63,951 nt of DNA, filler included, from an uncultured Methanosarcinales archaeon (GCA_964385185.1; 4 parts of 4 records of this genome joined end to end with filler, not necessarily neighbours in it); one strand, 5' to 3'. Shown: positions 11,171-35,230, numbered from the whole stretch's first letter. The notes: generated from the sequence alone by a model not told the origin. Program-made: numbers and translations.

Positions 11171-12288
11171 ATTTTATCAACTTCTTCAAAAATTCTAAAT
11201 AATTGGTGTAATCCTAATCTAATCTTTTCAGTGAGTAAATATTCATCTGTTGAATGAGTTTTTTTGCCATCTGCAATCGCTATAGTGAGACTAGGTAATC
11301 CCAAACTAATTGGATAATTAGAGTCTGTACTTCCAACATCATCTATTGTAGGAATATCTAGTTCTTTATGTACACTTGTGATAATTGTTTTGAGTTGTTC
11401 ATTTTCCATATTTCCGCCAGGTCTATCACCCAATATTTTACTTTCAACTTTAACAGAAGTTACTTGACTAATAATTTCTTCAATCTCTTTTATTTTTTGT
11501 TTTAATATTTGACCATCAATAGATCGTACCTCAACACTAAATTCTGCTTTTTGTGGAATAGCATTAACTGATGTGCCCCCTTGAATTGTTCCTATATTAA
11601 AAGATGTTTTTGGATCAGAAGGATAATTAATATTAGAAATTTTCTTAATTATTTTTGTGGCTTCTATAATTGCATTAGGTTTTCCAAATTCTCTCCAACT
11701 GTGACCGCCTTCACCTATGATAGTTATATTACATCTATGACTGCCAACTACTGTCGTAGTTAATCTTCCAAGTTTATGTCCTTCTATTACAATATGTGCC
11801 TTGACTTTAGTTTTATCCACATTATCAAAATAATATTTCATCCCTCTCAGATTACCTAATCCTTCTTCTCCAACATTGTAGAGAAATACCATTGTATGTT
11901 TAGGAGTAATATTATTTTCTTTGATATATTTCATTAAGTAGAGCATTGCTGTATCACCTGTAGCATTATCACAAATGCCTGGACAATATATAATTCCTTT
12001 CTCTTCCTTAATTTCTAAAGGTGTCCCTTCTGGAAATACTGTGTCTGCATGTGCTGAAAAAATAATAAGATTATCAGAAGATCCTTTTAATGTAATAACA
12101 AGATTTCCTTCTTTGTCAATATGAATATTTTGGTATCCTATATCTTCTACTAGTTTTTTGAAGTAAAGAACTCTTTTTTCTTCTTTAAATGGTGGAGAAG
12201 GAACTAATGCTAACTTTTTCATATCTTCCATAAACTGATTGTAAAACTTTTCAATATATTCTTTAATGTTATCCATTGTTAAATCCAA
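11167..12288 (-). CDS. M20/M25/M40 family metallo-hydrolase (peptidase T-like)
   Basis: SAHADTV, GICDN, GEEGLGNL, GEGGHSW, GSTDSN, THSTDE motifs. Confidence 0.9.
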   Translation of the reverse strand: MDLTMDNIKEYIEKFYNQFMEDMKKLALVPSPPFKEEKRVLYFKKLVEDIGYQNIHIDKEGNLVITLKGSSDNLIIFSAHADTVFPEGTPLEIKEEKGIIYCPGICDNATGDTAMLYLMKYIKENNITPKHTMVFLYNVGEEGLGNLRGMKYYFDNVDKTKVKAHIVIEGHKLGRLTTTVVGSHRCNITIIGEGGHSWREFGKPNAIIEATKIIKKISNINYPSDPKTSFNIGTIQGGTSVNAIPQKAEFSVEVRSIDGQILKQKIKEIEEIISQVTSVKVESKILGDRPGGNMENEQLKTIITSVHKELDIPTIDDVGSTDSNYPISLGLPSLTIAIADGKKTHSTDEYLLTEKIRLGLHQLFRIFEEVDKI

Positions 12289-13345: not shown

Positions 13346-14752
13346 CTAATGTGTATAAAATGTTCTTATCTTACGATAATTATCAGCTGCCATTAATAGT
13401 CCTTCTTTTTGGAAATTACCAGACATTCTAAATCCTCCAAATGGAGAATGTTCAAAACGGAATCCTGGTTGTCCATTCCAACTAAACTGTCCCACATTAA
13501 TCCTACTAAAATAGGATTTTGCTTCTTTCTCATCTTCTGTGACTATAGCACCTGCAAGACCATACTTTGAATTGTTTACAATTTGTAGTGCATCCTCCAT
13601 AGAATCTACCCTAATAATTGGGGCTACAGGTCCAAAAGTCTCTTCTACGACTAGTTCTGCATCTTTTGGTACATTGTCAATAACTGTAGGAGAATAAACA
13701 GCTCCTTTCTTATAATGCCCTAATAATACATTTCCACCATTTCTAACTGCATTATTAACTCTTCTTTCTATACACATTGCAGATTTATTACTTATAACAC
13801 ACCCTACGTCTGTATTTTCATCATATGGATTTCCATATTGTAATTTTTCAACTAAAGGAAGAAACTCATCTAAAAATATGTCTGCTATATTTTCATGGAT
13901 TAATAATCGTTTTATTGATGTACAACGTTGTCCAGAATTTTTAAAAGCCCCTAATGCTATTGTAGCAGCCATTTTTATATCTGCTTTTTTTGAAACATAC
14001 AATGCACTGTTGCCTCCAAGTTCATAAACCTGATGTAAAAAAGGATTTTGACTTTGTGCTATAGCTTGAGCAACTTTATGTCCATTTCTTAGACTTCCTG
14101 TGTAGGCTAAAACCTCTAATTGTTCACAGTTTAACATTGCTTCAAGTGCTTTAACAGGATCTGAAGAAGTTACTATTTGATATTGAGATGAAGGAAATCC
14201 TGCTTCATAAAGTAATTTAAAAAAGGCAACAGCAGATAAAGGAGTTTTTTCTGAAGGTTTTAATACCATATTTGCATTAGCAAGGAAATTTGGAACAACT
14301 TTATGAGATACCTGATTTATTGGATGATTAAAAGGTGTAATAGCTGCCACTAAATTTACTGGCGTTTGGATAACATCCATCATATTATGTGATTCATTAA
14401 CTCTAAACCTATCACTAATATCTACAATATCTTGTTCATCACTATCTGTATTAATTAAAAATTCATGAGAAAGTTGTATTAATGCTTCTGTTCTTCCTAC
14501 TTCATAAAGTGAATCCTTTTTACAAAGACCAGATTCTTTACTAATTAAAGTAGCTAAAACTTGTTTTTGTTCTTGAACTATATTTCCTAAACGTTTAATT
14601 GCAGATAATCTTTCAGTTTTATCTAATTTTTCAGTATTTTGAGCAACTTTTTTTAAAATATCAGTAATTTCCCGAGAAGAATAATCTTTTACTACTCCAA
14701 CTAACTCATTATCATATGGACTATGAACAATTAATTGTTCTGATATTTCCAT
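13346..14752 (-). CDS. Aldehyde dehydrogenase, phosphonoacetaldehyde dehydrogenase (PhnY)-like
   Basis: ITPFNHP, KPSEKTP, ELGG, KNSGQRCT, EETFGP; DSLYEVGR and SPFGG..SGN..KEG resemble PhnY as recalled. Confidence 0.85.
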   Translation of the reverse strand: MEISEQLIVHSPYDNELVGVVKDYSSREITDILKKVAQNTEKLDKTERLSAIKRLGNIVQEQKQVLATLISKESGLCKKDSLYEVGRTEALIQLSHEFLINTDSDEQDIVDISDRFRVNESHNMMDVIQTPVNLVAAITPFNHPINQVSHKVVPNFLANANMVLKPSEKTPLSAVAFFKLLYEAGFPSSQYQIVTSSDPVKALEAMLNCEQLEVLAYTGSLRNGHKVAQAIAQSQNPFLHQVYELGGNSALYVSKKADIKMAATIALGAFKNSGQRCTSIKRLLIHENIADIFLDEFLPLVEKLQYGNPYDENTDVGCVISNKSAMCIERRVNNAVRNGGNVLLGHYKKGAVYSPTVIDNVPKDAELVVEETFGPVAPIIRVDSMEDALQIVNNSKYGLAGAIVTEDEKEAKSYFSRINVGQFSWNGQPGFRFEHSPFGGFRMSGNFQKEGLLMAADNYRKIRTFYTH

Positions 14753-19728: not shown

Positions 19729-20661
19729 TTACTTGCAACCTACTGCAACTTCGTCAGCATAACACGTTTGTGTAAATGAAAGAGTGCATTGAGGGGTAAT
19801 AAGTCGATTGAAGATAACATTCTTGACTGTGCATGACTCCTGGGCATAAGGAACATCTGACAATATATTGTGAGATTTGGTCGTGCATGATTGCCCCACA
19901 CTATTGCACTGACTATTTGATGTACAAAACATACAATTAAATGTACAGGTTGTGGGGATTGTTTCACTATATACACCGTATTGAGTCCAGCCAGCTGGGC
20001 AAAAATTGTGTGTACCAGTTAATCCATTCTTTCCATTGATAACTGCGAACCTGCAAAGTAATTGACCTGCTCCACCCCCTCCAGAATTTGCATGTGTCTT
20101 TGCAATAGTTCCCCCTTGTGCTATACATTCATCAACAGAATGCCCTCTGTGAAGAAGGCATTTTGAACATGGACCTCCACAATCTGTGCCTGTTTCTCCT
20201 TGGTTTTTAATTCTATCATCACAAGTGGCACATGGTTGGGTATTGCAAGCCTTAGTATCTGATCCAATACATGATTTTCCACCACAGGTAGGGGAAGGGT
20301 TGTTACATATTCTTGTTTGAGTGCCACCTCCACATGTTACAGAACAAGAACTATACTCTTCACTCCAACCACCATCAACAACTGAACCGCAATCGGAGGG
20401 AGTATTTATTGTATCACTGGTGATTGGAGCATTTTCACTTTGAAGATTTGGAGGTGTTAATGAAAGGGGAGTTAATTCTGTATCATGTTCAAAATTTACA
20501 ATACCGAAATTCGGTGCTTCCGAGATGGGGAAAGTTCCAAGAGGAACACCCAAGTATACTTGAAAAGGGTGCTGGAGTTGTAAAGCTGATATATGATTAG
20601 CATCGATTGGTATAATAAACAATGCTAAAATTATGAAACATATGAATATTATCTTTTTCAT
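19729..20661 (-). CDS. Secreted Cys-rich protein with thrombospondin type-1 repeat
   Basis: Signal peptide; VDGGWSEEYSSCSVTCGGGTQTRICNNPSP; CDDRIKNQGETGTDCGGPC; CPAGW C-terminal domain. Confidence 0.85.
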   Translation of the reverse strand: MKKIIFICFIILALFIIPIDANHISALQLQHPFQVYLGVPLGTFPISEAPNFGIVNFEHDTELTPLSLTPPNLQSENAPITSDTINTPSDCGSVVDGGWSEEYSSCSVTCGGGTQTRICNNPSPTCGGKSCIGSDTKACNTQPCATCDDRIKNQGETGTDCGGPCSKCLLHRGHSVDECIAQGGTIAKTHANSGGGGAGQLLCRFAVINGKNGLTGTHNFCPAGWTQYGVYSETIPTTCTFNCMFCTSNSQCNSVGQSCTTKSHNILSDVPYAQESCTVKNVIFNRLITPQCTLSFTQTCYADEVAVGCK

Positions 20662-27261: not shown

Positions 27262-28863
27262 TTACTCCATCCTTCTCAACTTCAAGAAACTAAAACCCAT
27301 TATCCCAGCTAATAAAATAGCCAACACTACAATAATAATCAATATATGTCCACTCAATTCTGAAGGACTTTCACTCACTTCAACAGGTTTTTCTCCTAAT
27401 CGTTCAATTTCAACCTTTTTCTCTTCTTTCTTCGCACTTCCTGCAGTAGACGTAACTACTTGCTCACTCTCCTCAACTTTTTCAACTTCAGCCTTAGCTT
27501 TTTCCTGCTGACCTTCTAAATCTGGGATAGCAAACAAATACTCAGTATATTCCCCTGTCAAATGTTCCCCAGTATACGTATCATAATTCCAAGTAACCGT
27601 AATCTCAACATCAAAGGTACTAGAAACATCTGGCCAATCTACCTTCCTATCTAAAATTGAAATGGAAGCATTATTACTAATCTCTAAATCTCGAAAACTC
27701 ACAGGCTCAAATTCTTTATAGTTTGCAGAGATATCAATATTCAAATTTTTAAACCCAAATGCTGTAGGATTACTTAAATTAAATTTAACAGGTACTTTGC
27801 TTCCAGCACCATACTGATAGGTAGAAAAATTACTAATAAGTACCAACTCTGGTTTTTTTATCTCAAGCGGTTTAGTATTTTCAATATTCAAATCAATTCC
27901 ATTAAATACAAAGTCAATGGAAGCAACCACATCACCCGTCCCAGAGGTAACTCCTTTCAACTCCAACCATAAACTCCGTGTTTTATTGGAACTAATAGGA
28001 CCACTCCAAATTAAATCCCTCCAAGCCACATCACGCCTAACAACTTCTACATTAGTCGGTAAACGTACTTCCAATTTCTTAATCTCAAGTTGTTTTTTCT
28101 GCGTATTTGTAATATTAAGAAAATACATAAAATTCTCTTGTAGGGTAACATCTTCTCCTCCACCAGTAACAATATCAAAAAATTCATTCTTTATTTCAAA
28201 AGTAATTGCCCCTGTTTCCTTTTCTTTTTTTACAATACCATTATTAAATTTTAAAGTTGCCCGAGATTTTAATTCAACAGGATTCTTAATTTTAATCCGG
28301 TACTTACATTTGTGCTCTGCACCGGATTTAAGCTCTCCTTTCCAGGTAATCCCTGCAACACCTCTAGTACATTTTCCATCATTACTTACAATCTCAATCT
28401 CAGCTGGAAATGAATCACTATATTCAATATCTTTGACCGTAGCATCAGAAGGATTCTTAATAGATACTGTAATATCAGACTCATCCCCAATTTCAATATC
28501 TCTATCGACCAATTTCCGAACAATATCTAAATCAGATACATCTTGTTCCACCGTGATTTCAACTTTATAGCTTAATTTTTGAGATTCATAGTCATAATCA
28601 CCATCTTCATAACCAAGAAAGCATATAGTCATTTTGACTTGAGAGAAACATTGTTCCAAGTCAACAATAGAAGTGGTATCACCATACTTAACAACTACTT
28701 TAGTAGGGGGAATACCGTATGACTGTGCAGTTAAATTGATTCCATCAAGTTCCACACTATCTGATGGGTTTAATTTTCCATTAAAGATTTCTTCTTTTAC
28801 TCCAGAAACGGTTTGAATACACACTAATATAAGTAATAAAACAAGTAACCTCTTTTTATCCAT
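27262..28863 (-). CDS. Cell-surface multi-Ig-like (DUF11/S-layer-like) protein
   Basis: Signal peptide, beta-rich repeats (ITVSIKN...YSDSFP...ITWKG), C-terminal TM anchor. Confidence 0.8.
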   Translation of the reverse strand: MDKKRLLVLLLILVCIQTVSGVKEEIFNGKLNPSDSVELDGINLTAQSYGIPPTKVVVKYGDTTSIVDLEQCFSQVKMTICFLGYEDGDYDYESQKLSYKVEITVEQDVSDLDIVRKLVDRDIEIGDESDITVSIKNPSDATVKDIEYSDSFPAEIEIVSNDGKCTRGVAGITWKGELKSGAEHKCKYRIKIKNPVELKSRATLKFNNGIVKKEKETGAITFEIKNEFFDIVTGGGEDVTLQENFMYFLNITNTQKKQLEIKKLEVRLPTNVEVVRRDVAWRDLIWSGPISSNKTRSLWLELKGVTSGTGDVVASIDFVFNGIDLNIENTKPLEIKKPELVLISNFSTYQYGAGSKVPVKFNLSNPTAFGFKNLNIDISANYKEFEPVSFRDLEISNNASISILDRKVDWPDVSSTFDVEITVTWNYDTYTGEHLTGEYTEYLFAIPDLEGQQEKAKAEVEKVEESEQVVTSTAGSAKKEEKKVEIERLGEKPVEVSESPSELSGHILIIIVVLAILLAGIMGFSFLKLRRME

Positions 28864-29692
28864 AATACATATAGCTCAAAAGCTTATATATTAATCTTGC
28901 TGATAATACGTTACAATGTTCTTGTCCTTCTCTTGGACACAATTCTACAACATCAAAGCCAATTATTTTCTTTTTTGCACTTACTTTCTTTAAAAATTTC
29001 AATAATTGCCAATATCCCATCCCTCCAGGCTCTGGAGTCCCCGTAGCAGGCATAATGGAAGGATCTAAGGCATCTAAGTCAATTGTAACATACACTTCTT
29101 CATCAAGTCTATCAACAGCCTTATCCATCCAAGAATCATCATCCATTATATCTTTGGCAAAGAACACATTATCATCTACCATATCCTTTCTTTCACCTTG
29201 AGAACAACTTCGAATACCTACTTGGACAAAAGGGCAGATGTCTTTAACTCTTGCCATAACAGAAGCATGTGAGAACTTTTCTCCTTTATATTCATCCAAT
29301 AAATCTGCATGTGCATCAATTTGTAACTTACACATTTTTGGAAATTTTTCTTTAAACGCTAAAACAGAACCAATACTGATGGAGTGTTCCCCACCCAATA
29401 AAACTACTTTTTTATCTTGAGAAAGTAGTTCAGAAACCCTTTTCTGAACGTTTTGCACCATCTCTGTTGCATCTTTTCCAGTAATGGGTTCATCTGTAAA
29501 GATTCCTTCTTTTACCACCTCAGAATCTGTTTCTATGTCATATGTTTCTAAATGTAAACTGGCATCGATAAGTGCCTCTGGCCCTTTATCTGCACCTTTC
29601 ATCCATGAGCTAGTACCATCAAAAACTACCGGAAGTATTACTATCTTAGCTTTATCTACATTATCAGCACTTCCACCTACGTATTGTTCCAT
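28856..29692 (-). CDS. speB: Agmatinase (ureohydrolase family)
   Basis: GGEHS, DAHAD, DLDALDP, TGTPEPGG; start at MEQYV. Confidence 0.92.
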   Translation of the reverse strand: MEQYVGGSADNVDKAKIVILPVVFDGTSSWMKGADKGPEALIDASLHLETYDIETDSEVVKEGIFTDEPITGKDATEMVQNVQKRVSELLSQDKKVVLLGGEHSISIGSVLAFKEKFPKMCKLQIDAHADLLDEYKGEKFSHASVMARVKDICPFVQVGIRSCSQGERKDMVDDNVFFAKDIMDDDSWMDKAVDRLDEEVYVTIDLDALDPSIMPATGTPEPGGMGYWQLLKFLKKVSAKKKIIGFDVVELCPREGQEHCNVLSARLIYKLLSYMYYG

Positions 29693-29750
29693 AGAAATAT
29701 AGACTCTGATATCTATTATAAAAGTATCGTTTAGGAAAAGTGTTAAGAAT

Positions 29751-29868
29751 AAAAAACGCCAACGCCCGGAACAACTACACAAGTTAGTTGACCCCTACTT
29801 CGGATTGGAGGATTTCACTTCGTTCAACCCTCTAATGCTCATGAAAAGAAAAAACGCCAACGCCCGGA
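29751..29868. repeat. 20-bp direct repeat of tRNA-Ser 3' end enclosing a 78-bp hairpin insert
   Basis: AAAAAACGCCAACGCCCGGA at 29751-29770 and 29849-29868. Confidence 0.88.
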
Positions 29869-29978
29869 TTTGAACCGGGACATCCGTGAGGAAACAACCG
29901 CTCCTCGCTTCACTCGGACCATTTCAGCCGAGCTGAAACTTTCCAGGGTTGCGCAGTACCAGGTTGTGCCACGTTGGC
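29855..29978 (-). tRNA. tRNA-Ser(GGA) with 40-nt anticodon-loop intron (about 29901-29940)
   Basis: GCCAACG/CGTTGGC acceptor, CAACC-CTGGAA[..]-GGTTG, long variable arm, G73; 84 nt after splicing. Confidence 0.9.
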
Positions 29979-30146
29979 ATAGCTAACGTGGCGACCACAA
30001 ACTCTGTTTGGGTGTATGCCACGTTGGCGAATGGAATGAGACTACGTGGCGACCGTGGATTTTGATCCACGTGTATGCCACGTTGGCGAATGGAATGAGA
30101 CTACGTGGCGACCGTGGATTTTGATCCACGTGTATGCCACGTTGGC
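29979..30146 (-). repeat. Three tandem hairpin units (50, 59, 59 bp), each starting with nt 1-12 of tRNA-Ser
   Basis: TGCCACGTTGGC ends at 29978, 30028, 30087, 30146; units 30029-30087 and 30088-30146 identical. Confidence 0.92.
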
Positions 30147-30208
30147 GTAAAGTTGGAACAAAACTAAGTAATAAAAGAAATAGAAATTGGTTTATAAAGT
30201 TTACCAAT

Positions 30209-30763
30209 TCATCTAGCGTGTAATACTTCAGGTTTTAATAACCCAAACTCAGGATCATAGCCAATGCTAAAACCTTGTGTTACCAACACACCTAATGATT
30301 GGTATATTCTAATACTTTTTCGTCCCCATTCTGGTAAACAAGACGAAGATGCATATTTTTCTGGATTGTTCGCATATCTTTTTGAGTCATCCACAGAAAG
30401 GAGAGCCTCTTTTGCCCCCTGCTGAGTCATGGTTACTTCCATATCTACAGAATCTACAGTTAACATTAAAGGAGTAAGATTCTCCGCTGATATTTTCGTT
30501 TGCACTGCAGTCTCAAAATCATCTCCCTCATGAATTCTATGAGCATATTGTCGCGCACTTGCGCCTAACATGTTCTCTCTTGTTCTTGTCTCTTGCCCTA
30601 CGTATGGTTTACTTGCTACCTCTTCAAGAAACAAGTATACACCTTGAGCAACATCTCTATCCCATAATTCACCTGCAGGAAGAATTAAATCATTACCCCT
30701 TTCAGAACTTGCACAATTTCCTTTCTGTGTAATTACTCTTATTAATCCATCCATATAAATCAC
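30209..30763 (-). CDS. Hypothetical protein
   Basis: 184-aa ORF, no motif recognised. Confidence 0.7.
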   Translation of the reverse strand: MIYMDGLIRVITQKGNCASSERGNDLILPAGELWDRDVAQGVYLFLEEVASKPYVGQETRTRENMLGASARQYAHRIHEGDDFETAVQTKISAENLTPLMLTVDSVDMEVTMTQQGAKEALLSVDDSKRYANNPEKYASSSCLPEWGRKSIRIYQSLGVLVTQGFSIGYDPEFGLLKPEVLHAR

Positions 30764-30807
30764 CCTGTATAGTTATAGAGAAGAAGAATCAAATAGAATA
30801 TAAAAAA

Positions 30808-31134
30808 CTATTTATTCCCACAGTAGAATATCTTCCTAATATCAACATCAGATGTTGAAAAACCACCAGTACTATGGTGACTATCTGCAGGAGTGGGAGG
30901 AGCCTGGGTTACTTCTTCCTTAGTTATTTCTGTTCCAGGCTCCGTAGGCATAGGAGCAATCTCTCTCTTAATCTCTTGTTGTTTTACCATGTCTCGTATT
31001 TCAACAACTTGAGAATTTAAATCCACAATAACTCTCTTTAGATCTCCGACTTCTCGTCGTAAGTCTTTAGTTTGAATATCTACCAATAATTCAACTTTTC
31101 GTTCAATGAGTAAGTCTTCAACCATTGATATCAT
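30808..31134 (-). CDS. Coiled-coil hypothetical protein in ftsZ operon
   Basis: Heptad N-terminus, Pro/Thr linker, C-terminal DVDIRKIFYCG peptide; overlaps upstream gene. Confidence 0.75.
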   Translation of the reverse strand: MISMVEDLLIERKVELLVDIQTKDLRREVGDLKRVIVDLNSQVVEIRDMVKQQEIKREIAPMPTEPGTEITKEEVTQAPPTPADSHHSTGGFSTSDVDIRKIFYCGNK

Positions 31135-31849
31135 CCTCTATATTGTTGGAAATAAAATTAATCATTTTGTCATTCTCAGCAATTTTATAGATATCTAAAG
31201 CAGTTTTTGAATCGCCTGCATGTAATAATCCCTCTGCTAGAGAATTTAATCGATCAGTTGCACCTGTAATTTTATAGGCTCGAACGGCATAATCAAGCTG
31301 TCTTTCATCAGCAGCACGATCTCCAAGTTCAATCATTTGTTCAACTTCTCCTACACCTTCAAAAGCTTCAAGAGCAAGTTCCCATTTACCTTTATCTATA
31401 CATTCTTTCCCTATCAGTACCATTCTTTCTTTTGCTTGTAGCTCTTTGAAAACGCCAAGAGCAGCTTTGAAATTTTTATTAGTAAAACAGGTCTCTCCAA
31501 TATTTCGTAATTCCTGCAAATTTCCAGACATTTTAAAGCATTCAACTGCTTTTTCAAAAAAAGCAATTTTAACATATTCTCGTCCAACTTCTGTAAGTTT
31601 AGCTCTATTCTCTGAGAGAATAAACGCTTTCTCACCCTGTTCAAGATTACCACGCCGAAGATGTTGCTCTCCTAAGCTATTATAGAGCTTATATCGCATT
31701 TTTTCTTCAAACATAGAAAGATCAAGGTCCTCCACTTTTTTATGTAGTAGGTTTGGCAGAATTTTCTGAACAGTGTGATCACTGTGTGAAGAACCCTGAT
31801 CTAAATTTATGTGTGATAAGACATTGTTTTGAATTACTTTATCTTCCAT
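31118..31849 (-). CDS. TPR-like alpha-solenoid protein
   Basis: About 29-aa repeats (L.EVG..Y....FEKAVECF; L..IG..C....F..AL..F); immediately after ftsZ. Confidence 0.8.
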   Translation of the reverse strand: MEDKVIQNNVLSHINLDQGSSHSDHTVQKILPNLLHKKVEDLDLSMFEEKMRYKLYNSLGEQHLRRGNLEQGEKAFILSENRAKLTEVGREYVKIAFFEKAVECFKMSGNLQELRNIGETCFTNKNFKAALGVFKELQAKERMVLIGKECIDKGKWELALEAFEGVGEVEQMIELGDRAADERQLDYAVRAYKITGATDRLNSLAEGLLHAGDSKTALDIYKIAENDKMINFISNNIEDDING

Positions 31850-31850
31850 T

Positions 31851-32867
31851 TTACACACTCTCGATATTCAACTCATTATTCATCCACTCAGACTCATTAG
31901 TCTGTTTAGCTTCTTTTCCAAGAATCCAAGGGCTTTTAACGCCAGTGATAATGGTCATTACAATGATTTTGCCTTCCATGTTATCATTGATTCTTGCCCC
32001 CCAGATAACGTTTGCATCGTCGTCCAAAGTTGCAGTAACCAAATCTCCAGCTTTTGCAATATCATCAAGAGTTAAGTCTGGCCCGCCTTCTATATGTATT
32101 AAGGCACCAGTTGCTCCTCGGTAATCAACATCTAATAATGGATTACTCAGGGCCCCCTTAACACTCTCTTCTACTTTTTGGTTGGTGTCTGAGTTACCTA
32201 CGCCAATACTAGCAACACCACCGTTTGTCATTATAGCCTTGACATCGGCAAAATCTAAGTTTACAAGGGAAGGAACAGCAATAGTTTCAACAATTCCTCT
32301 AATCATTGTAGAGACTAATTCATTTGCAACAGAAAATGCTTGTTTAACGGGCAAGTTTCCTGCAATCTCAACAAGTCTATTGTTATCAACAACAATAACA
32401 GTATCACAATGTTGTCTTAATTCCATAAGACCTTGTTCAGCTTTTTCAATTCGAGCTCGCTCAATCTTGAACGGCATAGTAACCGTTCCAATAATGATAG
32501 TATCTTGTTCTTTAGCCATTTTTGCAACAACAGGGGCAGCACCAGTTCCAGTACCTCCACCCATACCTGCACAAATAAAAAGCATATCTGTATGACCAAG
32601 CATTTCTTTTAAATCGTTAAGACTTTCTCTGGCAGCATCTCCGCCTGTTTCAGGATATCCTCCTGCACCTAATCCTTTAGAAACTTCTTTTCCAATCAGT
32701 AATCGATGATCTGCACTTGTTAATTGTAAATGTTGTTGATCTGTATTTATTGCTAGAATTTCAGCCCCCTTTATTCCTTTTTTATGAAGCCAGTTCGTCA
32801 TATTACTCCCTGCGCCTCCAACTCCGATAACTTTGATATGAGCTACGCCCGTTTCTATTTGTTCCAT
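31851..32867 (-). CDS. ftsZ: Cell division protein FtsZ (FtsZ2-like)
   Basis: GVGGAGSN, GMGGGTGTG, NLDFADV; GAGGTGA SD before MEQIETG. Confidence 0.97.
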   Translation of the reverse strand: MEQIETGVAHIKVIGVGGAGSNMTNWLHKKGIKGAEILAINTDQQHLQLTSADHRLLIGKEVSKGLGAGGYPETGGDAARESLNDLKEMLGHTDMLFICAGMGGGTGTGAAPVVAKMAKEQDTIIIGTVTMPFKIERARIEKAEQGLMELRQHCDTVIVVDNNRLVEIAGNLPVKQAFSVANELVSTMIRGIVETIAVPSLVNLDFADVKAIMTNGGVASIGVGNSDTNQKVEESVKGALSNPLLDVDYRGATGALIHIEGGPDLTLDDIAKAGDLVTATLDDDANVIWGARINDNMEGKIIVMTIITGVKSPWILGKEAKQTNESEWMNNELNIESV

Positions 32868-33067
32868 GTGATCACCTCTGCCAGAGTAAAAAGCACCTCT
32901 TTTTCCCTGCACTCAATAGTTTTTTTGTAGTTTCTTATAAATAGCAACTAGTATATAAATGTTACGTTTTAGTATACTGGTACCTAAATTGTGTGTTTTC
33001 GGGTAATATCTAAAAAGTAGAAATTTCAATCTATAGACTACAAAACGAAAAATATTGTTAAAAAGAA

Positions 33068-33391
33068 TTAATCCTTAGCAATCCCAAAAACGGATCTTAG
33101 AGCCACAACAATGGTTGCTGGAACGAAAATAATCAAGATATTACTCAACATTTTGGAGATAATCGGTACAATTGCCAGAACATTTTGACCTAAAGCACTC
33201 ACAATAACAAGAACAGCACCTGCCATGAGAAAAGGTTGAGTCTCTTTCTCAGTTACATTAAGCAGTCCTACAATAAGTCCCACAATAACTAAGATAAGTG
33301 CAGCAAGAGTATTAACATCCCATACGAATGCCATAACAATAGCAACAATAATTCCAATCAGAAATGCCCAACTGCCTATTACACTTTTCAT
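33068..33391 (-). CDS. Small multi-pass membrane protein
   Basis: Four hydrophobic segments, GLIVGLLNVTEKE. Confidence 0.8.
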   Translation of the reverse strand: MKSVIGSWAFLIGIIVAIVMAFVWDVNTLAALILVIVGLIVGLLNVTEKETQPFLMAGAVLVIVSALGQNVLAIVPIISKMLSNILIIFVPATIVVALRSVFGIAKD

Positions 33392-33467
33392 ATGATTATC
33401 TAGAAGGAATTAGTATTTAAAGATTTATGTAAAGAAAAATAATGGTACTATAAGTTCAATCATACCG

Positions 33468-34516
33468 TTACTTAAAATTTCTCCTATCTACTCCAGCCAA
33501 ATATGTTCCTACACCAGCAAGCAAGGGAATAAACCAAAGTCCTGAAGCCCACAATCTTTTTCCACCCATTTGATCTGCCATATCTCCCATGAACACATCT
33601 GAGGCGCCTAATGATTCTGATTTTTTCTGAACTTGTCCCCACCAACCACTAGTATACTTTAACTCAGGATCCATATTATCCAATTCTCGATACTCATGAA
33701 TGGCACTTCCAATAGCATTTTTCAAAAATCCAATATTTAAGGTTTTGATATCACTTCTGATAATTGTAAGATCAGTATCGTCATCGAATTTATTCAAGCT
33801 GGCCTTTGCTCTGTTTAGATATTCTATTGAATTTTTCAACTGACCCATGTCAGCATAAATCAATGATACATAAGTATTTCCCCATGCGTCATTCATAGGA
33901 GTAAAATTTACATCCCAAGGACTAAAGAATGAATAATTCGCAGCTGATTCCATAAGATTAACTAAAGCCATATTTTTTGGGAAACTTTTTCCCCACTGGC
34001 ATTTACCCCTCCTGAAACTGCATCGTTAAATGCTTCATAAGCTGAAGATATTGTCTTTGCCATTTCACTAGATAATAATCTCTTCATAGGGAGGGTATCA
34101 GTTTCAGATGGCAATGTGTTCTGATAGGTCATACGTACCCATTCTGGTGCATCTTCAGGTAATTTATTCGATCTATATGCTTCGTCTAATAGTCCTATTC
34201 CATGAGCATGCAACTTTGCATCATCCAATATATTTGCCAAATTGTCCATATTATAAAATTCAGATTTGAACCATATGGCAGTGTTTTCACCTCTTCTAGA
34301 ATTTGCATGTATTGATGCTTCCTCCAAAAGCCCCTCCATAGATTGAAATCCTTCTGTTTTTTTAGCCATGACAGTTGAACCAGCTACTGCAATGGGTTTT
34401 TCAATAAATTTATCTATGTCTAAATATTCAAAGAAAAAATTAGAAGCTATACTATATATAGCTACAAGTGCTAAACCTCCTCCTAGATACCTTTGAAGCC
34501 TTCCATTCCTAAGCAT
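33468..34516 (-). pseudogene. Possible single membrane protein split by a 1-nt frameshift (ORFs 33962..34516 and 33468..33971)
   Basis: N-terminal TM on first ORF, C-terminal TM on second; one extra A in the A6 run near 33975 fuses them. Confidence 0.45.
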
Positions 34517-34575
34517 AATAATTGATAATCTAAGCTAATTTATAAAGTTATCATTTATTATTTTATTAAGAAAAA

Positions 34576-34884
34576 TTAGGCGTCAATCATTTCAATTTTG
34601 TAACAGTGCCACTCGAGGGGTTGAGCAAAGCGAAATCCCTCATACGTTGTACGTAGCCTTCTAAGCGGACGCGCTTAGGCGTCAATCATTTCAATTTTGT
34701 AACAGTGCCACTCGAGGGGTTGAGCAAAGNNNNNNNNNNNNNNNNNNNNNNNNNNNNNNNNNNNNNNNNNNNNNNNNNNNNNNNNNNNNNNNNNNNNNNN
34801 NNNNNNNNNNNNNNNNNNNNNNNNNNNNNTACGTTGTACGTAGCCTTCTAAGCGGACGCGCTTAGGCGTCAATCATTTCAATTT
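34576..34884. repeat. 99-bp tandem units duplicating the last 23 nt of rps10 (copy number hidden by N gap)
   Basis: TTAGGCGTCAATCATTTCAATTT at 34576, 34675, 34862 with the same hairpin-rich insert. Confidence 0.85.
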
Positions 34885-35173
34885 CAATATTCAATCCCTC
34901 AGGTATAGGAACACGCATTACCAACCTAAGAGCTCGCTCATCTATCCCTAAATCAATTAAACGTTTATGAATTCTCATCTCATAACGTTCCCAAGAAGCC
35001 TTACCTTCACCACAAGGACTTTTTCTTGTAGTAACTTTTAATCGTTTAGTAGGAAGAGGAATAGGTCCACGCATATTAACACCTGTTTTCTCAGAGATAT
35101 CGTTGATATAACTACATACCTCGTTGACTTTACTAATGTCAGTCGATGCTATCTTGATTCGTGCTTTTGGCAT
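34862..35173 (-). CDS. rps10: 30S ribosomal protein uS10
   Basis: [34 protein letters not shown]. Confidence 0.97.
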
Positions 35174-35230
35174 TTTGTGCGTGTACCGCATGATAAACAA
35201 GGGTTCATCATGAAAAGGAAATTAAAAAAA

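Follow-up and report, generated by a model that had tools for sequence, protein, structure and literature searches.

In a 63,951-nucleotide (nt) stretch of the archaeal genome assembly GCA_964385185.1, here called the window, the ends of a tRNA-Ser(GGA) gene and of rps10, which encodes ribosomal protein S10, are repeated beside the genes themselves, with short structured spacers between the intact gene end and its copies. The same architecture recurs at rps10 and tRNA genes of related archaea, and a spacer together with one copy of the gene end is called a gene-end cassette in what follows. We suggest tentatively, with rather less than even confidence, that these are miniature non-autonomous integrative cassettes, each of which carries a replacement gene end and recombines within that end on insertion.

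The host is a DPANN archaeon, Woesearchaeota/Nanoarchaeota-like, and the nearest relatives of its rps10 protein come from metagenome-assembled Woesearchaeota, Nanoarchaeota, and Nanobdellota, with a top identity of 92%. The sample of relatives consists of 80 rps10 loci with 10-kb flanks, 1.08 Mb in total, each denoted by the letter L and a number. Coordinates are collected in Table 1.

Duplicated Gene Ends in the Window

The first-pass annotation of the window reported that a 20-nt end of the tRNA-Ser gene is repeated with period 98 and a 23-nt end of rps10 with period 99, and both duplications are real. The 20-mer consists of the last 14 nt of tRNA-Ser and the T-run that follows, and occurs in two exact copies; the tRNA gene itself is overlooked by ARAGORN in bacterial mode. 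The 23-nt end of rps10 occurs three times. In the rps10 spacer, read in the sense of the gene, 8 nt from the Glu-Gly-Leu codons are repeated directly and a further 10 nt are complementary to the same codons; together the two segments form the GA hairpin described below. A run of N interrupts the array, and since the sequence on both sides of it is identical to the complete rps10 unit, the assembler could probably not resolve the copy number; the three copies of the rps10 end are those visible beside the gap.

A third duplication had been overlooked. Upstream of tRNA-Ser there are three tandem units, each starting with a copy of tRNA-Ser nucleotides 1-12(15) and continuing with a hairpin and a segment complementary to tRNA nucleotides 5-11. 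The sole TATA-like box, found by reading, lies upstream of the outermost unit, and therefore the three units would belong to the tRNA-Ser leader. Comparable leader-like units occur in L045, L049, and L069. A leader stretch of 11-13 nt just before the tRNA start is alike in the window units (29979-30146) and in the L069 unit (~11440-11560); the sequences suggest that the 5' units are homologous across species and not independent.

Recurrence and Target Specificity

Most close direct repeats of at least 15 nt in the 80 loci are located at the ends of rps10 and of tRNA genes. The C-terminal coding end of rps10 has a second copy 28-108 nt downstream in 9/80 loci, always on the same strand, and no further second copy was found at greater distance within 10 kb in any of the 80. 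Shorter DNA repeats at rps10 in L041 and L059 raise the number of carriers to 11/80, or to 12/81 when the window is counted. A strict DNA criterion was also applied to all stop-to-stop open reading frames (ORFs) of at least 70 amino acids (aa; n = 4063), by which the last 15-18 nt must be repeated within 220 nt, with reversed sequences as controls. It gives four matches, all of them at rps10, and none at any other gene or in the controls.

For the 52 tRNA genes with full flanks, the first 13 nt and the last 13 nt were searched as copies. The 5' end is copied upstream in five cases and the 3' end downstream in four, while copies on the wrong side do not occur. End copies are found at 7/52 tRNA genes, namely five for Ser (window, L045, L049, L052, and L072), one for Ala (L021), and one for Arg (L030), and L019 is a further tRNA case, overlooked by ARAGORN. 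The idea that the ends of essential genes are duplicated in general was too broad, for only rps10 and tRNA genes are affected. Nor are the two loci of the window unrelated, as had been assumed: they lie 5 kb apart, and are syntenic neighbours in relatives, since in about 20 of the related loci tRNA-Ser follows rps10 on the same strand, 0.1-5 kb downstream of it.

The repeats have preferred boundaries. Those at 3' ends begin in or at the T-loop (window, L052, L030, and L072), which is the classic crossover site of integrases, and those at 5' ends begin at tRNA position +1 and finish in the D-loop region. Unit length ranges from 49 to 152 nt, yet many units measure 94-99 nt despite unrelated spacer sequences; the spacers span 30-110 nt. 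Tandem identical units are present in the window, L045, L049, L052, and L059. In the 64-kb window and the 1.08 Mb of relatives the cassettes are seen solely at rps10 and tRNA loci, with no dispersed copies, and an inverted-repeat scan of the window cassettes gave no terminal pair. A repeat of a different kind from these end duplications occurs in L025 (9337-9460), where the repeated piece comes from the middle of a tRNA-Leu gene; it is 19 nt long, covers the 3' strand of the anticodon stem and the variable arm, and has its second copy upstream of the tRNA, at a distance of 105 nt.

Divergence of Proximal and Distal Copies

In eight pairs the proximal and distal copies of the rps10 end have equal length and differ in sequence. 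Together these pairs have 50 synonymous against 2 nonsynonymous codon differences, and the nucleotide differences at codon positions 1, 2, and 3 are 8, 3, and 51. Because the differences are almost all synonymous, both copies must have evolved as the end of a working gene, which would be expected of one copy borne by an element and another belonging to the host. A copy drifting on the spot would gain mostly nonsynonymous changes, and in-situ tandem duplication with neutral decay was rejected on this ground. Use of the distal rps10 copy by read-through or frameshifting was rejected as well, since the distal copy has no start codon and its offsets keep no constant reading frame.

By the same divergence, and by repeat lengths that vary from 13 to ~43 nt, the repeats are not target-site duplications, for which a fixed length would be expected. 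In the window the copies are identical, so that the att-like difference between host and element, present in the eight rps10 pairs, is absent there. Among tRNA cases, the distal copy in L026 has an acceptor-stem variant which mismatches the present 5' strand.

Hairpins, Spacer Modules, and tRNA Introns

Both window spacers contain the same hairpin, as had been noted, in sense orientation to tRNA-Ser and antisense to rps10. In this orientation the two spacers match locally at 18/21 positions, a score reached by 0/2000 shuffles, and when they are oriented alike the hairpin starts at position 17 in both. The strict 17-nt hairpin pattern has only these two mismatch-free places in the window. As the GUU and AAU triplets pair, the structure runs from a stem of 7-8 bp through tandem G.A pairs and 2 bp to a triloop; the compensatory change that had been claimed for it is present, although it amounts to a single base pair. 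Folded as RNA, the GA strand has -8.7 kcal/mol (z -2.6) in the tRNA-Ser hairpin, compared with -4.8 for the opposite strand, and -14.4 kcal/mol (z -4.2, with 0/200 shuffles as stable) in the rps10 hairpin, compared with -8.2. The nearest-neighbour DNA fold is weak, with -2.1 kcal/mol for tRNA-Ser and -5.0 kcal/mol for rps10.

The GA motif is not a hallmark of the cassettes, as had been thought. The loose form GA-NN-RAA-NN-GA is at chance level in the window, with 38 matches against 32.7 expected, and the strict hairpin pattern has six matches in 1.14 Mb against 0-7 in ten shuffles, which means no general enrichment; most spacers lack the motif altogether. Four of the six strict matches lie within a tRNA gene or at most ~100 nt from one, a fifth lies in the window rps10 spacer, and the sixth lies elsewhere.

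Rfam, at gathering and permissive thresholds, matched the tRNA alone; blastn with both window cassettes gave no match in a phage collection; blastn-short of the window spacers against the 80 loci gave only chance matches of 12-15 nt; and the 78-nt tRNA-Ser spacer has no homolog in the 80 loci, the phage collection, or Rfam. Known RNA motifs were rejected for the hairpin: a kink-turn or L7Ae site, since the GUU/AAU flanks pair and leave no bulge and Rfam gives no match; a C/D box sRNA, with no C or D boxes seen by eye and no Rfam match; and the H/ACA, hammerhead, and T-arm-with-intron readings, dropped after inspection by eye.

Elsewhere the spacers are conserved. One spacer type is common to seven species (L014, L022, L031, L037, L041, L066, and L071) and contains a 9-nt complement of the proximal Glu-Gly-Leu-Asn codons, a conserved junction, and then a second hairpin; the window rps10 spacer is built on the same principle, with its direct and complementary segments. 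In the alignment of this type 93.9% of the cells are paired, compared with 84.9% in shuffles, 0/500 of which reach the score, and with 11-58% in slid controls. Seven pairs in its helices are changed on both sides, and covariation is seen in the helix that the rps10 coding end forms with the spacer, whereas the adjoining intergenic DNA cannot be aligned. With seven related sequences the covariation is supportive, not proof. A covariance model of this type finds the seven known copies, two weaker matches at rps10 in L045, and one in a tRNA-Met intron of L014. To judge from the sequences, the spacers are conserved structured modules and not junk.

The last of these matches connects the spacers with tRNA introns. 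In the L014 tRNA-Met intron (64 nt) the match is on the antisense strand, where 28/31 nt agree with the hairpin of that genome's rps10 spacer. In two genomes, the window and L014, the rps10 spacer hairpin therefore recurs in a tRNA-linked insert, where its orientation relative to the host gene is the opposite. The distal copies of L072 and L026 have a 46-52-nt insertion in the T-loop, at the site where the tRNA-Ser genes of L014 and L038 have true T-loop introns, and the L052 spacer pairs at its end with the T-loop in the manner of an intron. A scan for bulge-helix-bulge motifs gave no motif of suitable spacing, but the same scan missed the known introns that served as controls. The tRNA-Ser genes of the clade have introns at non-canonical positions, in the D-loop and at T-loop position 59/60, and several such genes are overlooked by ARAGORN.

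Distribution and Decay

On a tree of EF-1alpha with 74 rows, from which L037, L041, and L066 are absent because EF-1alpha is not in their locus, the nine carriers require at least seven changes, and the four carriers of the shared spacer type require four; the distribution is patchy. In the nearest relatives of each carrier the rps10 end is plain, except for L015 beside L031. In L015 there are two decayed tandem units, the second hairpin having been deleted, and the distal copy is 24/30 identical to that of L031, with substitutions at all codon positions (counted by eye). From the plain ends in nearest relatives and the decayed units in L015 it follows that outer units decay, and that cassettes are often gained or lost.

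Interpretation

The favoured reading can be spelled out as follows. The cassettes, of 50-150 nt and most of them of 94-99 nt, have as their specific targets tRNA genes, for the most part tRNA-Ser, and the rps10 3' end in DPANN archaea of the Woesearchaeota/Nanoarchaeota type. Each would consist of a structured spacer and its own copy of the gene end, and would enter by recombination within that end, in either a site-specific (att-like) or a homology-driven way. One copy would thereby be joined to the gene, which is kept intact, and the other pushed outward, to remain there as a relic. Tandem arrays with decaying outer units would result from entry more than once or from unequal crossing-over between copies. 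The shared hairpin would be a spacer module, with similar modules in tRNA introns of the same genomes.

The interpretation in the first-pass annotation is partly supported by these results: tiny inserts that regenerate the gene end are real and recur in independent genomes, and their structured cores are conserved. A mobilising enzyme encoded elsewhere was part of that interpretation. No such enzyme is encoded nearby, among the window ORFs; its supply from elsewhere in the genome we infer, as we do the mechanism of the cassettes and their mobility between lineages.

Several points weigh against integrative cassettes. The 63 ORFs of the window contain no integrase, transposase, reverse transcriptase, HUH, or Cas1 domain (the relatives were not searched), and within 10 kb in the 80 loci there is no full-size element flanked by these repeats. 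A free form of ~100 bp is at the physical limit for recombination of double-stranded DNA. The identical repeat copies in the window give no sign of foreign origin there, an assembly gap lies inside its rps10 array, and the gene-complementary segment of the spacer matches the host-joined copy, which fits a cis-acting RNA structure too. L001, the sister of the window on the EF-1alpha tree (SH-aLRT, the Shimodaira-Hasegawa-like approximate likelihood ratio test, 99), is its closest relative and only 85% identical in EF-1alpha, so that there is no near-identical genome for an empty-site comparison. The nearest element-free relatives do not tell whether the proximal or the distal copy is the incoming one, as the species are too diverged.

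A further proposal, which is unlikely, is that the cassettes are the precursors, at the level of DNA, from which the non-canonical tRNA introns and the split or fragmented tRNA genes of archaea arise, the same machinery acting at the end of rps10, the antisense strand of which is T-arm-like. A mobile module of ~100 nt would enter at the D-loop or T-loop with a spare gene end, leaving the gene intact, and later loss of the inner copy would turn the spacer into an intron.

That the spacers are instead cis-acting RNA, conserved elements of 3' untranslated regions or leaders which serve processing, termination, or stability, with the distal copy itself in use, for instance through endonuclease splicing or ribosomal bypassing, seems to us an unlikely account. 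In its favour are the covariation of the helix that joins the rps10 coding end to the spacer, an RNA fold of the hairpin that is far stronger on one of the two strands, distal copies that keep an intact frame with synonymous-only change, tRNA leader units with a segment able to sequester the extra 5' copy, and an L052 spacer whose end pairs with the T-loop like an intron. However, the distal copy has neither a start codon nor a constant frame relative to the proximal one, a stop codon and T-rich stretches come after the proximal copies, and in L015 the distal copies decay at all codon positions. The stable strand is, furthermore, antisense to rps10 yet sense to tRNA-Ser, and the module is missing from nearest relatives.

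The cassettes could also be ordinary scars, left when elements of kilobase size (viruses or plasmids that have tyrosine integrases) integrated at att sites and afterwards lost almost all of their length, with leftover junk as spacers. DPANN genomes are small, and both the T-loop breakpoints and the foreign-type divergence between two copies would be accounted for. Partial tRNA copies are, moreover, a known signature of integration, according to passages in van der Gulik 2023 (PMC9897764) and Sugahara 2012 (PMC3293823). We nevertheless regard this origin as rather unlikely, given the clustering of sizes at 94-99 nt with unrelated spacer sequences, the conservation of one spacer type with covariation in seven species next to unalignable intergenic DNA, the common occurrence of identical tandem units, and the lack of a larger remnant in any of the 80 loci.

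The model put forward in the first-pass annotation, with hairpin micro-transposons moved as single-stranded DNA by an HUH, GIY-YIG, or reverse transcriptase enzyme from elsewhere, and with 20-23-bp target-site duplications that survive only where a gene end is regenerated, is improbable. It agrees with the window, where the repeats are identical and 20 and 23 nt long, the hairpin has the same offset in both spacers, and the GA hairpin takes either orientation relative to the host gene. It would lead one to expect insertions most commonly in intergenic DNA, where none are seen, close direct repeats being almost solely at rps10 and tRNA ends. Variable repeat length, the lack of terminal inverted repeats and of motif enrichment, and a coding-type divergence incompatible with a fresh target duplication all speak against it.

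Little probability attaches also to repair synthesis, by which snap-back and template switching during break repair at highly transcribed, structured genes would have built the spacers from neighbouring direct and inverted copies. Short direct and inverted copies of the adjoining gene segment do occur in spacers (window rps10, L014-type, L052, and L072), but such copies start identical and cannot yield the 50:2 synonymous pattern. An assembly artefact of the metagenome-assembled genome, to which the 100-N gap in an rps10 array of 100% identical units and periods of 98-99 near common read lengths might point, is very improbable, since the same architecture is present in many independent assemblies from different assemblers, many of them with diverged copies, which no assembler creates.

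How archaeal tRNA genes acquire introns and fragments is an unresolved question on which the cassettes bear; in a passage of a 2026 preprint (10.64898/2026.10.13.758758), the route by which tRNA introns arrived in Asgard archaea "remains open". The DPANN clade has small structured inserts at the same D-loop and T-loop positions as its tRNA-Ser introns, and a spare gene end makes each insertion harmless. Should the cassettes be mobile, no smaller integrative elements would be known, and they would offer a testable intermediate for intron gain. In practice, they lead to false partial tRNA and rps10 fragments and to collapsible tandem repeats in metagenome assemblies.

Surroundings of the Cassettes

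The window has a G+C content of 35% and contains genes of the archaeal core (S12, a NusA-like KH protein, split RpoA and RpoB, L15e, EF-2, EF-1alpha, S10, FtsZ, and NDK) beside a polysaccharide cluster. The interval between rps10 and tRNA-Ser includes six ORFs that have no Pfam match and lie to both sides of ftsZ (30209-31858 and 33068-34516, minus strand). Because tRNA-Ser follows directly after rps10 in some relatives, the 4.9-kb stretch between the two genes may be a lineage-specific insertion. The listed start of the arginase-family ORF is a TTG within the distal tRNA repeat, and an ATG near 29694, after a TATA-like box, looks likelier by eye. A 310-aa ORF (19729-20661, minus strand) matches the thrombospondin type 1 repeat (PF00090, E 8e-7), an unusual domain for an archaeon. 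In the 3' coding region of rps10 in several relatives (for example L041 430-470 and L014 10271-10300), Val-Met-Arg and Pro-Glu codons spell a C-box-like heptamer and CUGA, 12 nt apart; this resembles half a C/D box sRNA, is not found in the window codons, and is taken as coincidence.

Table 1. Positions of the cassettes, their host genes, and related features in the window and, where a locus is named, in relatives
Feature	Position	Strand	Basis
Arginase-family ORF	28856-29782	-	Pfam Arginase
Distal copy of tRNA 3' end with T-run, just upstream of arginase-family gene	29751-29770	-	exact 20-mer
Spacer of tRNA-Ser 3' cassette, 78 nt	29771-29848	-	sequence reading
Hairpin, sense to tRNA: 7-bp stem (one G-U pair), tandem GA/GA, 2 bp, GAA loop	29808-29832	-	pattern scan, fold
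Proximal, functional repeat copy: tRNA from T-loop to 3' end, with T-run	29849-29868	-	exact 20-mer
tRNA-Ser(GGA), 41-nt intron at canonical position	29855-29978	-	Rfam tRNA, 39.3 bits, E 1e-6; ARAGORN with introns allowed
GA-NN-GAA-NN-GA mini-hairpin inside tRNA-Ser intron	29905-29915	-	loose-motif match list; Rfam intron extent
Three tandem leader units (59, 59, 50 nt) upstream of tRNA-Ser	29979-30146	-	repeat analysis
Most distal copy of 23-nt rps10 end, then T-rich stretch	34576-34598	-	repeat family
Complete spacer of rps10 cassette, 76 nt	34599-34674	-	sequence reading
Hairpin, antisense to rps10: 8-bp stem (one G-U pair), tandem GA/GA, 2 bp, AAA loop	34615-34641	+	pattern scan, fold
Middle copy of 23-nt rps10 end (34675-34697) and 32 nt of second spacer copy entering gap	34675-34729	-	100% identical to 34576-34630
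Run of exactly 100 N (scaffold gap or mask) inside rps10 tandem array	34730-34829	.	sequence
Spacer copy on gene side of gap, 32 nt	34830-34861	-	34830-34884 100% identical to 34643-34697
Proximal, functional repeat copy: last 23 nt of rps10, stop codon included	34862-34884	-	repeat family
rps10 (ribosomal protein S10)	34862-35200	-	Pfam PF00338, E 4e-29
Strict GA-hairpin match	window tRNA-Ser flank		
Strict GA-hairpin match	window rps10 spacer		
Strict GA-hairpin match	L021 tRNA-Ala 5' cassette		
Strict GA-hairpin match	L014 tRNA-Met intron		
Strict GA-hairpin match	just 3' of tRNA-Lys, L063		
tRNA-Ser with non-canonical intron	L014 10490-10680		
tRNA-Ser with non-canonical intron	L038 ~13350-13470		
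tRNA-Ser with non-canonical intron	L023 downstream of rps10		
tRNA-Ser with non-canonical intron	L055 10445-10565		
tRNA-Ser with non-canonical intron	L069 ~11400-11530		

Comparison with Known Systems

The architecture of the gene-end cassettes was not found described in the literature searched, a limited library, and several known systems share parts of it. Miniature inverted-repeat transposable elements (MITEs), and the repetitive extragenic palindromic (REP) and palindrome-associated transposable elements (PATE) of IS200/IS605 or REP-associated tyrosine transposase (RAYT) systems, are small, non-coding, and hairpin-bearing like the cassettes. The cassettes, in contrast, lack terminal inverted repeats and dispersed copies, choose their targets strictly, and have variable long repeats instead of a short fixed target-site duplication or none. 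Traits of REP and PATE were looked for, and neither enrichment of the motif (window, 1.14 Mb) nor an HUH domain among the window ORFs was found.

Casposons integrate at tRNA 3' ends or at the 3' end of aEF-2 with target-site duplications of 14-15 bp. As in casposon insertion and in the repeat duplication of clustered regularly interspaced short palindromic repeats (CRISPR), the 3' end of a tRNA or translation gene is targeted and the target is duplicated, and like CRISPR the cassettes form repeat-spacer-like arrays that apparently decay outward. They differ from casposons by the lack of terminal inverted repeats, by variable repeat length, and by the lack of Cas1 in the window. A CRISPR array proper was rejected, as the spacers are identical and the window has no Cas domain.

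Cis-mobilisable elements (CIMEs) are flanked by att sites and lack an integrase; ICEs (integrative and conjugative elements) and IMEs (integrative and mobilisable elements) form site-specific accretion arrays. The cassettes resemble CIMEs as non-autonomous DNA between att copies, in tandem accretion at one att site, and in a dependence on an integrase encoded elsewhere, which for the cassettes is presumed. They are, on the other hand, ~100 times smaller, archaeal, and only putatively mobilised. With archaeal non-canonical tRNA introns, whose transposition or gain has been proposed, they share the positions of their repeat breakpoints, in D-loop and T-loop; the hairpin of the L014 spacer is shared with a tRNA-Met intron, and the window tRNA-Ser intron has a similar mini-hairpin. 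Unlike such introns, the cassettes are not within the mature gene, and they have repeats at their borders.

Site-specific integration of mobile elements, archaeal or bacterial, into tRNA genes was reportedly described by Reiter in 1989 and by Williams in 2002, and integration at a tRNA terminus is the closest published model. A passage in Sugahara 2012 (PMC3293823) describes mobile elements that integrate at a tRNA end, whereby a tRNA fragment comes to be directly repeated and an intron can be brought in, and one in van der Gulik 2023 (PMC9897764) treats partial tRNA copies as a signature of element integration. The likeness lies in a gene end that is directly repeated, the gene at one border being intact, as between attL and attR, in the T-loop breakpoint, in copies that differ as host and foreign alleles do, and in a distal copy that may differ by an intron-like insertion (L072, L026). 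The differences are that integrated elements measure 9-23 kb, while the inserts of the cassettes have 30-110 nt, are gene-free, and hence have no integrase gene inside; that 5'-end duplications of the cassettes lie within the transcribed leader; that the cassettes form tandem identical units and also target a ribosomal protein gene; and that their spacers are conserved structured modules.

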